Shown piece by piece: positions 5,442 to 10,220 of a stretch of 64,000 nucleotides of DNA. The number at the start of each line of letters is the position of its first letter. Position 1 is the first letter of the stretch. The position numbers were made by a program, and so were the translations under genes. Location: positions 349,918 through 413,917 of the forward strand of contig JAYPPL010000010.1 in assembly GCA_038131445.1 (NCBI GenBank), read 5' to 3'. This DNA is from Alphaproteobacteria bacterium. GTDB taxonomy: Bacteria > Pseudomonadota > Alphaproteobacteria > UBA6615. The notes under the pieces are model-generated. The model was given only the letters and a program-made list of their open reading frames with translations. It did no database searches and had not been told where the DNA came from.

Positions 5442-7268
5442 ATGGCGCAGGCGAACAGCGGCAAAACCCGCAACCGAAAACTCTTGAAATGGGTCGAGCA
5501 GGTAGCGGCCCTGACCAAGCCGGACGACATCTACTGGTGCGACGGGTCGAAAGAAGAATACGACCGTCTGTGCGCCGGGATGGTCGAGCGGGGAACCCTG
5601 ATTCCGCTGAACCAAGAATTGCGGCCCGGCTGCTTCCTTGCGCGCTCTGACCCGGATGACGTTGCTCGCGTCGAGGACCGCACATTCGTATGCTGGGACG
5701 ATCCGGAAGATGCCGGTCCAAACAACAATTGGATCGCGCCGGACGAAATGCACTCCACCCTGAACGGACTGTTCGACGGCGCGATGCGCGGTCGGACCAT
5801 GTACGTCATTCCGTTCAGCATGGGGCCGCTGGGCTCACATATCGCCCATATCGGCGTGCAGCTCACGGACTCCCCCTACGTTGCGGCCAGCATGCGCATC
5901 ATGACCCGTATGGGTCAGAAGGCGCTGGACGTTCTTGGCGACGGCGATTTTGTTCCGTGCCTGCACACGGTCGGGGCGCCGCTGGCGGACGGCGAGGAAG
6001 ATGTCGTCTGGCCCTGCAACGAGACCAAATACATTGTCCACTTCCCGCAGGATCACTCGATCTGGTCCTACGGCAGCGGCTATGGCGGCAACGCCCTGCT
6101 AGGCAAGAAGTGCTTCTCGCTCCGCATCGCCTCGATCATGGCGAAGGAAGAGGGCTGGCTCGCCGAGCATATGCTGATCCTGGGTCTGGAATCGCCGAAG
6201 GGCGAAAAGGCCTATGTTGCGGCTGCGTTCCCAAGCGCCTGCGGTAAGACCAATCTGGCCATGCTTATTCCGCCGGAAGGCTATGAGGGTTGGAAGGTCA
6301 ACACGGTCGGTGACGACATCGCGTGGATCAAGCCGGGCAAGGACGGGCGGCTCTATGCGATTAACCCCGAGGCCGGTTATTTCGGTGTTGTGCCGGGCAC
6401 GTCCACCAAGACCAACCCCAACGCCATGAAGATGATCGAGCGCGACACCATCTTCACCAATGTCGCGCTTACTGATGACGGCGATGTCTGGTGGGAAGGC
6501 AAGGACGGCGAGGTGCCGGCGCATCTGATCGACTGGACGGGCAATGACTGGACTCCCGACAGCGACACGCCCGCGGCGCATCCCAATGCCCGCTTCACCG
6601 TAGCCGCGCAGAACTGCCCAAGTATCGACCCGGCCTGGGACGATCCGTCCGGCGTACCGATCGACGCCTTCGTCTTTGGTGGCCGGCTGAGCAGCACCTT
6701 CCCGCTGGTCTATGAGGCCAAGGACTGGGAGCACGGCGTCTATATGGCTGCGACCATGGGCTCCGAAGCGACAGCGGCGGCGGTCAATCAGGCGGCGATA
6801 CGCCGTGATCCGATGGCGATGCTGCCCTTCTGCGGCTACAACATGGCCGACTACTGGACACACTGGCTGAGCTTCCAGGACAAGGACCTGAAGCTGCCGA
6901 AAATTTTCCGTGTCAACTGGTTCCGCAAGGACGATGAGGGCAACTTCATCTGGCCGGGCTTCGGTGAGAACATGCGTGTGCTCGAATGGGTGTGCGAGCG
7001 TGTCCACGGCAATTTGGATGCGGTAGAGGGCCCGCTCGGCGGCATGCCCCGTTATCAGGACCTCAACTGGCAGGGTCTCGATTTTACCGAGGATGCATTC
7101 CACGGGATCATGGACCTATCGCGCGAGGACGGCAGCAATGAAGCCGAGGCACAGAAGGAACTCTTCGACAGCTTCGCTGACCGTCTGCCAGCCGAAATGG
7201 AGGCCCAGCGCCAGGCGTTGCTGTCCCACATGGAGGGCGCACCAGAAGTCTGGCGGATCGCCAGCTAG
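5442..7268 (+). CDS. pckG: Phosphoenolpyruvate carboxykinase (GTP)
   Basis: [59 protein letters not shown]; start MAQANSG after GGAG. Confidence 0.95.
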
Positions 7269-7295
7269 AATCTCCAGTTTCGACCGTACTGAATA

Positions 7296-7330
7296 AAAAG
7301 GCCGCCCCTCGGGGCGGCCTTTCTTGTTTT
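7296..7330. terminator. Bidirectional intrinsic terminator between convergent pckG and hpxZ-like gene
   Basis: aaaaggccgccc-ctcg-gggcggccttt stem with an A tract on the left and a T tract on the right. Confidence 0.85.
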
Positions 7331-7355
7331 CACCGATATGCGATGCGGGTCGTAC

Positions 7356-7730
7356 CTATTTGACGACGCTCACATGCGCAGCGACGATCCGCCAGCCTTC
7401 GGGCATGCGCACCCAGGTCTGGCTCTGGCGTCCAATCCCGCCCATGCTGGGGCGGTTGAATTCCAGATTGGCGGTCGCGTAATCACGACCGTAGGTCGTG
7501 ACGACAACCGGGCCCGTCGTTCGTTCGAGGCCGACCGGTGAGCGTGCGGAGCGGAAACCCGCGATCTGATCGTGACCATAGAGCTGCTCGGCGATCCCGT
7601 ACCTGAGTGTCAGTTCGTTGGCCCAGAACAGCTCGTTCAGGGCATCGACGTCATTGGTGACGAGCGCCTGTTCGTAGCGGTCGTGCGCGGCCGTCACCTC
7701 GGCCAGCACTTCGGGGATGTTGATTTCCAT
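7356..7730 (-). CDS. HpxZ/AtzH-like (DUF3225) protein
   Basis: [50 protein letters not shown]. Confidence 0.85.
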
Positions 7731-7769
7731 ACCTGTTCTCCAACTCAGGAAAGAAACATGCCGTGCGGA

Positions 7770-8432
7770 CTATTCCACCGTCTTTTCCGATGCGCCCGCG
7801 CCGGGCTTATTCCACCAGCAGTCACACATGAAGGCGACGTAGTCCGCCGGGTCGATCGACTTCGATTTCGTGAAGCGGCCCATGACCGGGCTCTCCTCGA
7901 TGTCGATCTGCAGACCGTCCGTGAATCGGTTCCAGAAGTTGAAGAAGCACGACACCATCGTGATCTCGATGATCTGCGCCTCGTCGAAGTGCTTCTTCAT
8001 TTCCGGCATCGCGTCGGGATTCTCACCCCGGTAGGTCTTCTCCGTCAGCACCTCCGCCCATTTCATCGCGGCTTTCTCCGCGGGCGTGAAGTGTTCGGAA
8101 TTCTGGTAGTCACCTTCGATGGCGGCGATCATGTCATCGTCAAAACCCAACCCTCGACCGAGCGTTACGTTGTGACCGATTCAGTATTTGCATCCGTTCA
8201 GCATCGAGGTTTTCAGGATGACCAGCGCCTTGGTGCGGACATCTAGGATACCCGTCACCTCTTCACGCAGCGCGGCCACCAGAAATCCGTAGATGGACTG
8301 GGCCAGTTTGGGTGAATGGGCGGCGGTGCGGACCGCGTTGGCAACACGCCCGAACATCTGCGTCGAATGTTCGAACAGGATCTTGGCCTCTGGTCCCGCC
8401 TCTTCGTCGGTGACGACCGGCAAATGCGGCAT
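7770..8432 (-). CDS. AhpD/carboxymuconolactone decarboxylase family protein, probable selenoprotein (CxxU, UGA at 8181-8183)
   Basis: ORFs 8181..8432 and 7770..8150 are in the same frame; read-through gives SMLNGCKY-U-IGHNVTLGRGLGF, matching the AhpD CxxCxxH motif; downstream FTPAEKAAMKWAEVLT and FNFWNR are CMD-family motifs; AAGGAGG RBS. Confidence 0.85.
8136..8180 (-). promoter_or_regulatory. Candidate bacterial SECIS element
   Basis: mRNA after UGA: AUCGGUCACAACGUAACGCUC-GGUC-GAGGGUUGGGUUUUGACGAU; upper stem AAC.CUC/GAG.GUU with a G-first GGUC loop 21 nt after UGA; lower stem AUC.GUCA/UGAC.GAU (folded by eye). Confidence 0.7.
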
Positions 8433-8533
8433 CGTCGTCCTCCTTTTCGTGGTTTTCCAGTCGCCAGATTAATGCCCGTTGGCCGGGAACGACAGAGGAT
8501 AGGGACGCAACCCGCGTTGCGCCGGATGCAGGC

Positions 8534-10220
8534 CTACCTGCCCTTTCCCTTGGCCCAGGAGTCGCGCAGCCCGACCGTACGGTTGAAGACGAGGGCGTCC
8601 GGCGCGGAGTCCGGATCGGCGCAGAAATAGCCCAGCCGCTCGAACTGGATCGGAACGCCGGTTTCGGCATCCGTGAGCGCGGGCTCCAGATAACAGGTCT
8701 CACGCACCGACAGGGAAGCCGGATTAAGGTCATCCAGCCAGTCGCGCTCCTTGCCGGGTTCCTCTTCGGCAAAGAGGTGGTCATAGAGCCGGACTTCGGC
8801 GGTCGTGGCGTGGGCGGCCGAGACCCAGTGGATCGTGCCACGCACTTTGCGCCCGTCCGGCGCATCGCCGCCACGCGTCTCGGGGTCGTAGGTGCAGCGA
8901 AGCTCGACCACATTGCCGTTCGTCGTCCTTGATGACCTCGTGGCAGGTCACGAAATAGGCGAAGCGCAGGCGCACCTCCTGACCGATGGCTAGGCGGTGA
9001 AACTTCTTCGGTGGGTCCTCCATGAAGTCGTCCCGCTCCACATAGAGTTCCCGTCCGAAGGGCACCTTGCGGGTGCCGGCGCTCTCGTCGCCCGGATGGT
9101 TCGCTGCGTCGAGTTCCTCGCTCTGTCCCTCGGGGTAATTCTCGATGACCATCTTGACGGGATCGAGCACAGCCATGCGTCGCAGCGCGGAGGTGTTCAG
9201 GTGGTCGCGGATGGTGTTCTCGAAATAGGACATTTCCACCAGCCCGTCCGCCTTCGTGACGCCGAGACGCGCGATGAAATCCCGGATCGCCACGGCAGGT
9301 ACGCCCCGGCGGCGCAGGCCGGAAACGGTCGGCATGCGCGGGTCGTCCCAGCCGGCAACGTGGCCGTCGGTGACGAGCTGGATGAGGCGTCGTTTGGACA
9401 GCACGGTGTGGCCCAGGTTCAGGCGGCCGAACTCGTACTGGCGCGGGCGCGACGGCACCGGCAGGTTCTCGATAAACCAGTCATAGAGCGGGCGGTGGTC
9501 CTCGAACTCCAGTGTGCAGATGGAGTGGGTGATCCCCTCGATGGCATCCGACTGACCATGGGCGAAGTCGTAGGTGGGATAGATACACCACGCATCGCCC
9601 GTGCGCGGATGAGGCGCGCGCAAGATCCGGTAGAGGACCGGATCGCGCAGATTGATGTTGCCGGAGGCCATGTCGATCTTCGCCCGCAGGACCTTAGCGC
9701 CGTCAGCGAACTCGCCTGCGCGCATGCGCGCGAACAGGTTGAGGTTTTCGTCCGGCGCGCGGTCGCGATAGGGGCTCGATTTGCCGGGCTCTGTCAGCGT
9801 GCCGCGGTATTCGCGAATTTCGTTCGCCGAGAGGTCATCCACATAGGCCTTGCCCTCACGGATCAGGTGACTGGCCCATTCGTACAACTGCTCGAAATAG
9901 TCCGACGCGTGGAATAGGTTCTCGCCCCAGTCGAAACCGAGCCAGCGCACGTCTCTCTCGATGGCGCGGATATAGGTTTCGTCTTCCTTGGCGGGGTTGG
10001 TGTCGTCGAACCGCAGGTGGCACTGGCCCCCGAATTCTGCCGCGATCCCGAAATTCAGACAGATCGACTTGGCGTGGCCGATGTGCAGGAAACCGTTCGG
10101 CTCCGGTGGGAACCGGGTCACGACGCGGCTGTGCAGGCCGGTATCGAGGTCGGTGCGTACCCGCTCACGAATGAAATCGGTCAGAGCGTCGTCGGTGTGG
10201 TTGTCTGTTAGGTCGTTCAT
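8534..10220 (-). CDS. glnS: Glutaminyl-tRNA synthetase with one +1 frameshift near 8921
   Basis: [41 protein letters not shown]; C-terminal [12 protein letters not shown]...[10 protein letters not shown]...QFERLGYF...[11 protein letters not shown] lies in the second frame (ORF 8534..8911). Confidence 0.92.

Follow-up and report, generated by a model that had tools for sequence, protein, structure and literature searches.

A probable AhpD-like selenoprotein gene with a conserved SECIS-like hairpin in an uncultured marine alphaproteobacterium

The minus-strand segment 8432..7770 of the analysed window (the whole stretch of DNA, 64,000 nucleotides) is best read as one intact gene of an uncultured marine alphaproteobacterium in which the UGA codon for residue 84 is decoded as selenocysteine (Sec), and we put the probability of this reading at about 0.9. 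The coding sequence, which belongs to the AhpD/CMD family, comprises 220 codons from an ATG at 8432..8430 to a TAG stop at 7772..7770, and the letters AGGAGG at 8439..8444 on the same strand, 6 nt 5' of the ATG, resemble a Shine-Dalgarno sequence. The first-pass annotation had described two open reading frames that share a frame and are split by a single TGA at 8181-8183. The coordinates of the pair (8181..8432, 83 aa, starting with ATG, and 7770..8150, 126 aa, starting with an internal TTG) agree with this description, as does the read-through translation across the one TGA that joins them at 8183..8181 of the minus strand. When 8432..7770 is translated with TGA as U, 220 residues are obtained with residue 84 as the sole U, and TAG is the first other stop; the frame is thus free of further lesions up to 7772..7770, as had been claimed. 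The protein context ...TSMLNGCKY-U-IGHNVTLGRGLG... places the Sec codon (8181..8183, minus strand) at the second position of C81-x-x-U84-x-x-H87, and the read-through sequence NGCKY-U-IGH is in line with the proposal that this TGA stands where the second Cys of a CxxCxxH motif is expected.

Homologues were searched in 46 genomes from the taxonomic family of the query, which gave 25 places at E <= 1e-60; these genomes are kin, and counts over them are not independent. The 16 Sec forms, found in 14 genomes with 66-100% identity to the query, all carry an in-frame TGA at the column in question (16/16), while eight Cys forms (54-62% identity) have TGC or TGT, and one broken Cys form (G005:C73, 58% identity) has TGC. 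The comparison at this column, which had been suggested as a check, therefore yields TGA in 16/16 close homologues and TGC/TGT in 9/9 more distant ones, at the same column throughout. Since both kinds are present in two of the genomes (G010 and G005), the Sec and Cys forms are paralogues. A pattern scan with one genome per species, biased toward near relatives of the query, returned 14 loci with TGA in 13 and Cys in one; by their labels these loci come from metagenome-assembled Alphaproteobacteria, 'Rhodospirillaceae', Hyphomicrobiales and Methyloligellaceae. Among 52 full-length public homologues the Sec column is occupied by C in 51 and by W in one. A maximum-likelihood tree was built from 41 rows, excluding L050 (partial) and L052 (pseudogene) and with the Sec column set to C so as to be uninformative; all 21 Sec forms of the ingroup fall into one clade (support 98/97) that is nested among Cys forms, and one additional Sec form is placed in the outgroup paralogue.

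These comparisons bear on the possibility that the TGA is a mutated TGC or TGT Cys codon in a dead or dying gene. A single base change would suffice for such a conversion, and the broken Cys paralogue in a relative, with TAG and TGA at columns other than the one considered here, is by its sequence a true pseudogene of the Cys form of the family. The query behaves differently, in that the TGA is kept in 16/16 close homologues from 14 genomes and in 13/14 further loci, no other lesion is seen, the hairpin discussed below is conserved, and dN/dS stays near 0.1 after the stop. For pairs with estimable dS the ratio is 0.09-0.10 on the 3' side of the TGA and 0.04-0.16 on the 5' side, and the value of about 0.1 indicates that the 136 codons 3' of the TGA are translated in frame. 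A pseudogene is for these reasons highly improbable.

Simple termination at the UGA would give an 83-aa product and leave the 126-aa frame from the TTG at 8150 as a separate gene or as untranslated sequence. Public gene callers predict exactly that: with the 83-aa N-terminal piece as query, 132 proteins were found at E <= 1e-10, and among the 120 of them listed, 108 are exactly 83 aa long, 118 have N-x-C-x-x as their last residues, directly ahead of the Sec codon, and the name is 'hypothetical protein' wherever the source gives one. Termination also competes to some degree with Sec insertion in every bacterium. However, the motif CxxUxxH and the conserved stretch IGHNVTLGRG span the stop and lie 5' of the TTG, Cys homologues run continuously across these columns, and the 83-aa piece would, judged from the structural model, cover under half of the AhpD fold. 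We consider it very unlikely that termination describes this locus, and the 118 of 120 listed short homologues that stop at the Sec codon rather bear out the expectation that the gene escapes standard gene callers.

An assembly or sequencing error in the metagenome-assembled genome has in its favour that glnS, about 740 nt away on the same contig, contains a likely one-base indel. The TGA is nevertheless found in independent assemblies of other species, and the site is covered by contigs from four runs of four studies (two of DNA, two of metatranscriptome libraries), which are labelled estuary, marine, salt marsh and seawater. Each of the contigs covering the gene has 12 to 32 listed differences from the window (40 less-supported ones are left out of these lists), none of the listed differences falls on 8181-8183, and the nearest, 8187 T>C, turns AAA into AAG on the coding strand and is synonymous. 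The first-pass annotation had named reads with TGC or TGT as evidence that would speak against Sec, and the contigs of the four runs have no listed difference on the TGA. As the run data are contigs, those from RNA libraries show presence, and are not proof of transcription, its level, its ends or its strand. An error at this codon has, in our estimate, a negligible probability.

The genome assembly (2.56 Mb, 10 contigs, 88.8% complete, 62% G+C) contains the full set of genes that had been proposed for a search. The genes selA (593 bits against a cut-off of 267.9), selB (467 against 242, with profile positions 1-578 of 581 matched), selD (296 against 125) and selC, the tRNA-Sec gene (71.6 bits against a gathering score of 47), lie together in some 10 kb of contig C2, each above its curated cut-off. 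ARAGORN reports a single tRNA-SeC with anticodon tca and no other tRNA with tca. Rfam has another tRNA-Sec match, on contig C5, which at 48.1 bits is marginally above the threshold and is not called SeC by ARAGORN. The selD gene is a fusion with a pyridine-nucleotide-disulfide oxidoreductase domain (Pyr_redox_2-SelD), an architecture that appears already in the GOS paper. Beside selD there is a second candidate selenoprotein gene, which is GrdB/PrdB-like and has a U-P-Q-C motif, while a search of the same genome (88.8% complete) for SelW-like proteins (PF10262) gave no match. Within the 46 family genomes a selA match was found in 36, including 14/14 of those with a Sec form, and a Sec form occurs in 0/10 genomes without a selA match; since these genomes are kin and hence not independent, this co-occurrence is a matter of consistency and not a test.

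The same genome-wide data address the alternative that a suppressor tRNA or a variant code lets UGA be read as Trp, Gly or Cys. Two full-length public homologues, P0002 and P0003, are deposited with W at the Sec column, which presumably results from gene calling under a TGA=Trp code on short contigs. Against a general reassignment, TGA closes 910 of the 1884 open frames of at least 300 codons in the whole genome and is otherwise an ordinary stop there, the G+C content is 62%, and the only tca tRNA is the tRNA-SeC. Decoding of the UGA as one of these three amino acids is extremely unlikely.

A selenocysteine reading of UGA-84 also calls for a recoding signal, and the RNA that follows the codon offers a candidate. 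In the minimum-energy fold a two-part hairpin occupies 8136..8180 of the minus strand (-18.7 kcal/mol), of which the lower helix is kept in part. Its upper stem-loop at 8146..8169 (minus strand) is a conserved SECIS-like element with 8 pairs and a single G.G mismatch. It is capped by a GGUC tetraloop (8159..8156), the first G of which is 21 nt from the UGA. The upper stem-loop overlies the codons V-T-L-G-R-G-L-G, and the GGUC loop with its closing helix coincides with CUC-GGU-CGR, which encodes a conserved Leu-Gly-Arg. The significance of the folding energy hinges on where the stretch is bounded: a 71-nt fold has -18.7 kcal/mol with z -0.52 (47 of 200 shuffles as stable), a 50-nt fold from the UGA has the same energy with z -2.85 (2/200), and the 24-nt upper hairpin alone has -8.1 kcal/mol with z -2.22 (3/200). 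Comparison of homologues is the stronger evidence.

Such comparison was made at the level of synonymous codon diversity and at the level of base pairing. The Sec forms (n=16) have a mean synonymous diversity of 0.493 over the whole gene, which falls to 0.238 across the 14 codons that follow Sec; each of the 8 least diverse of 209 windows overlaps the hairpin site, and at the codons for V, T, L, G and G synonymous diversity is zero. In the Cys forms (n=8) the corresponding window has 0.483 against a mean of 0.424, which is rank 170 of 211. The nine pairs are formed in 128 of 144 cells of the Sec forms, with the GGTC loop in 16/16, compared with 43 of 81 cells (53.1%) and a GGTC loop in 1/9 for the Cys forms. 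Covariation was assessed in 23 distinct TGA sequences from four paralogous subfamilies, a set that includes four more distant TGA forms of the query's own subfamily and five from three other CMD paralogue groups; in each of these five, from related genomes, CxxUxxH is present and the GGUC loop is at an equal offset. The 23 TGA forms have pairs in 90.3% of cells, and sliding the 3' partner by 1-3 columns lowers this to no more than 53.6%. Changes on both sides are seen in 4/9 pairs (11 cells), and 0/500 shuffles match the observed both-side cell count or covariation score. The earlier statement that the geometry fits the bacterial SECIS model is in agreement with a hairpin that is kept, with covariation, in 23 TGA forms. 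It had also been noted that close relatives would argue against Sec if they all had Cys and no conserved hairpin; TGA relatives exist, and they keep the hairpin.

The lower helix was considered as a conserved feature and rejected, as its pairs are broken in many homologues (13-57 and 16-54 are unpaired in 10/15 and 11/15 distinct rows, respectively) and it is absent from the RNAalifold consensus, which retains only the upper stem-loop at alignment columns 24-47, i.e. 8169..8146. Of the two-part hairpin with GGUC 21 nt after the UGA that was originally described, fold and spacing are thus reproduced, but conservation is confined to the upper stem-loop and does not extend to the lower helix. PMC1088965 describes a small apical loop containing G for the bacterial SECIS, and the element found here is a stem-loop just 3' of the UGA with a small G-containing apical loop that is conserved in the Sec forms. 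An Rfam scan of 7700-8500 with E up to 10 gave no SECIS family, only MIR164 and v-snoRNA-1 at chance level.

The resemblance to the fdhF element of E. coli, which the first-pass annotation had pointed out, was examined by folding fdhF of E. coli K-12. Directly after the UGA, the fold has a GGUC tetraloop closed by a helix of 3 bp, with an irregularity just below this helix, and the likeness to the present hairpin holds on each of these points, for two genes without sequence homology. The distance from the UGA to the loop is 18 nt in fdhF compared with 21 nt here, and below the apical helix fdhF has a single bulged U where the present hairpin has a G.G mismatch that is replaced by a G-C pair in some homologues. 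The bulged U of the fdhF hairpin is needed for binding of E. coli SelB. By analogy with the established bacterial SelB/SECIS mechanism, SelB·GTP·Sec-tRNA(Sec) would be expected to bind the apical hairpin and to deliver Sec once UGA-84 is in the ribosomal A site.

Selenoproteins of the AhpD-like CxxU kind have been known since 2005, and the query is a further member. Zhang and Gladyshev listed 27 such sequences (COG2128) from the Sargasso Sea in that year, together with a separate 'CMD domain-containing' CxxU family. The GOS study of 2008 has 'AhpD-like 1' (COG2128, CxxU) in the fourth row of its family table, with 299 sequences from 37 samples, and 'AhpD-like 2' (pfam02627) with 70 sequences. 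Recent reviews list an 'AhpD-like protein, TIGR01926, CxxU', and a database of 2026 has a page for the AhpD-like selenoprotein family. The claim that such proteins had been reported from marine bacteria is in agreement with the 2005 and 2008 papers, in whose listings they are among the commonest marine selenoproteins. With the published family (COG2128/YciW, TIGR01926) the query shares the superfamily, CxxU with Sec at the second Cys, the marine metagenomic origin and, as far as the published descriptions go, a SECIS-like hairpin of the bacterial type whose small apical loop contains G; it differs by about 45 extra C-terminal residues that end in an invariant WW.

A scan of the NCBIfam models with the query protein gave matches that were in every case below the curated cut-off. 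The score for TIGR01926 is 53.8 bits against 81.8, with 172/178 profile positions matched, and the Cys and Sec paralogues, at 33.6-65.4 bits, are likewise below that cut-off. For the YciW-related (seleno)protein model NF053654 the score is 54.8 against 310, and for NF041238 (AhpD_rel_CFYUT) 19.2 against 175. As TIGR01926 is matched end to end and yet below its cut-off, the query is a relative outside NCBI's curated models. What may be new is the lack of an NCBIfam model that reaches its cut-off, the truncation of the public homologues and a clade-specific CDC motif in the C-terminal tail.

Pfam assigns residues 54-127 to CMD (PF02627) with 43.5 bits against a cut-off of 23. An AlphaFold2 model from a 53-sequence alignment (pLDDT 87.1, pTM 0.84) is all-helical, with 12 helices, and has C81-x-x-U84 at the start of helix 82-94, so that the protein is predicted to have an AhpD-like fold with a CxxCxxH-type motif formed by C81, U84 and H87. 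The leading Foldseek matches are the AhpD-like structures 6k40, 2gmy, 7xw1, 2ijc, 2prr, 2pfx and 2oyo, and the debrominase Bmp8 was also found. The fold is common to D. radiodurans AhpD (6k40), P. aeruginosa AhpD/PA0269 (7xw1, 2ijc, 2o4d), Atu0492 (2gmy) and the 'peroxidase-related' proteins 2prr, 2pfx and 2oyo, with which the CxxCxxH-type motif aligns. Target-normalised TM-scores for the solved AhpD-like/CMD structures are 0.78-0.91 at Foldseek probability 1.00. These structures have Cys instead of Sec, 18-30% identity to the query and lack its last ~30 residues, and nothing among the structure matches corresponds to the part beyond about residue 190. M. tuberculosis AhpD (1gu9) is a weak match only (Foldseek rank 49, E 0.94, TMq 0.48), and no ahpC neighbour, as would mark an AhpD of the mycobacterial type, was seen beside the gene or the homologues examined.

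Gene, recoding signal, fold and selection are shown by the results above; for chemistry and substrate we infer from relatives, and a thiol/selenol oxidoreductase is most likely. Sec84 takes the position of the second CxxC Cys, the residue that makes the attack in M. tuberculosis AhpD. On that model, Sec84 could attack an oxidised substrate (a peroxide, a protein disulfide or a sulfenate) and then form a selenenylsulfide with Cys81 as the resolving residue, His87 could be part of a proton relay, and cellular thiols would re-reduce the selenenylsulfide. With neither a conserved neighbour nor an adjoining AhpC, family resemblance is what points to a peroxidase or oxidoreductase role.

The genomic neighbourhood was inspected for functional clues, and no consistent partner emerged from the homologue loci examined. 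An AtzH-like (NTF2-like) gene at 7356..7730 on the minus strand (PF11533, 184 bits) begins 39 nt 3' of the selenoprotein stop and is possibly co-transcribed with the selenoprotein gene. A GC-rich palindromic, terminator-like hairpin at 7297..7322 (11 pairs, 8 of them G-C), located between the convergent PEPCK and AtzH-like genes, likely marks the end of the transcription unit, and a promoter scan of 7200-8700 found none. The order glnS, selenoprotein gene, AtzH-like gene, PEPCK is seen only in the five closest genomes (G000, G010, G017, G005 and G043); elsewhere the neighbours are Sir2, HbpS-like, MFS, TauD, SMP-30/gluconolactonase-like, DctM and GRDB-like genes.

The C-terminal tail MCDCWWN, to which an extra redox or metal site had been tentatively ascribed, is present at residues 202-208. 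Across the full-length homologues (n=52) residues M202, W206 and W207 do not vary; Cys is found at position 205 in 31/52 (the others being G in 8, A in 7 and T in 6) and at position 203 in 0/52 (R in 32, Q in 18, K in 1 and H in 1). The motif itself is therefore as described, while a redox or metal site is weaker than had been suggested. C203 and C162 co-occur only in a single subclade of 11 among the 16 Sec forms, and from the alignment the CDC of the tail is clade-specific. Because the two residues arose in a single evolutionary event, a C162/C203 pairing is a lead rather than proof.

Bmp8 (PDB 6ohi, 6ohj) is the best full-length sequence relative of solved structure (profile E 3.4e-13, residues 11-188, ~20% identity). 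Its C-x-x-C-x-x-H motif aligns with C81..H87 but has Cys, not Sec, and no bmp-type gene cluster is found around the present gene. Bmp8 is a CMD-family reductive dehalogenase, and as it is the best full-length solved relative, the protein could conceivably be a Sec-dependent reductive dehalogenase or similar remover of electrophiles and maybe no peroxidase. It is tempting to speculate further that the gene represents a distinct and widespread CMD-fold selenoenzyme subfamily of ~220 aa, outside all curated models and with a C-terminal helix ending in the invariant WW, which perhaps has this dehalogenase activity and, in the query's own clade, a second thiol relay formed by C162 and C203; we regard this combined proposal as unlikely. 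If true, the dehalogenase reading would make the enzyme a bacterial counterpart of deiodinase chemistry, and the co-gained C162/C203 pair would resolve the selenenylsulfide in the query's clade.

For the selenoprotein as such, the Sec subfamily occurs commonly in metagenomes of marine and estuarine origin and yet is split at the UGA by public gene calls, and a dedicated model would recover the whole enzyme in many genomes. The gene also offers a clean example of a SECIS element laid over conserved Leu-Gly-Arg codons. The element is common to at least four paralogous Sec subfamilies, and its sharing by paralogues bears on how Sec and Cys forms of the family interconvert.

The AhpD-like selenoprotein of the window carries a pair of cysteines, Cys162 (window about 7947-7949) and Cys203 (about 7824-7826). 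Of the 16 Sec forms, 11 have both residues, and these 11 make up one subclade. In the remaining homologues the two positions are occupied by Gly and by Arg or Gln, respectively, and the Cys pair was found in none of the 52 other homologues examined. The pair may provide an extra disulfide or a thiol relay linking the helix formed by residues 151-173 to the C-terminal helix.

In two deposited homologues, the public predicted proteins P0002 and P0003 (75-76% identical), the residue at the Sec column is Trp, in the context NGCKY-W-TGHN, and the homologue alignment contains one more W at this column. The Trp in P0002 and P0003 probably reflects a gene caller decoding TGA as Trp on short contigs. 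The Sec forms contrast usefully with a Cys-form paralogue (L052, G005:C73:776-1405), a true pseudogene in which TAG replaces a Gln codon and TGA a Trp codon, both outside the Sec column. Within the window, a +1 frameshift splits glnS (8534..10220, minus strand), the essential gene for glutaminyl-tRNA synthetase, so that it reads as two frames, 8781..10220 and 8534..8911, which overlap. Alignment with a 96%-identical relative (G010), where glnS is an intact 591-aa ORF, places one surplus base within AAGGACGACGAACGG, at about 8923; an error of assembly or sequencing is the most likely cause of the frameshift.

In the source genome, a 738-aa ORF on contig C2 (locus L010:301-2517) joins a pyridine-nucleotide-disulfide oxidoreductase domain, which makes up its N-terminal half, to selD at the C-terminal end; this architecture corresponds to the Ndh-SelD fusion type mentioned in the marine metagenome survey of Zhang and Gladyshev (2008). 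Adjoining selD, outside the window, is a second candidate selenoprotein gene, GrdB/PrdB-like (PF07355), with an in-frame TGA at G000:C2:411460-411462 (minus strand), in the context ALVPV-U-PQC and with a hairpin downstream. In one distant MAG the Sec-form AhpD-like gene has as its neighbour a gene (L066:3737-4198) with a match to GRDB (PF07355), in that family's C-terminal part, and the two would constitute an adjacent pair of selenoprotein-type genes; side-by-side selenoprotein genes are described for other pairs in the same survey.

CMD paralogues are also found close to Sec forms. A Cys-form CMD paralogue 34% identical to the query (L035 type, G000:C10:348962-349585) lies some 330 nt outside the window, ahead of its first base, and approximately 8 kb from the query gene. 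At loci L064 and L066 the Sec form is directly adjoined, on the other strand, by a paralogue that shares 33-36% identity with the query. The CxxUxxH motif is moreover present in other paralogue groups of the CMD family, at least three in number (L069-L072 and L037, from genomes G016, G004, G022, G019 and G023), none of whose CxxUxxH members reached an NCBIfam cut-off. These groups have a SECIS-like hairpin whose GGUC loop and its offset are the same as in the query, encoded over a conserved Leu-Gly-Arg/Gln. The shared motif, loop and offset suggest that the SECIS predates the split of the CMD paralogues, and that replacement of Sec by Cys has occurred repeatedly.
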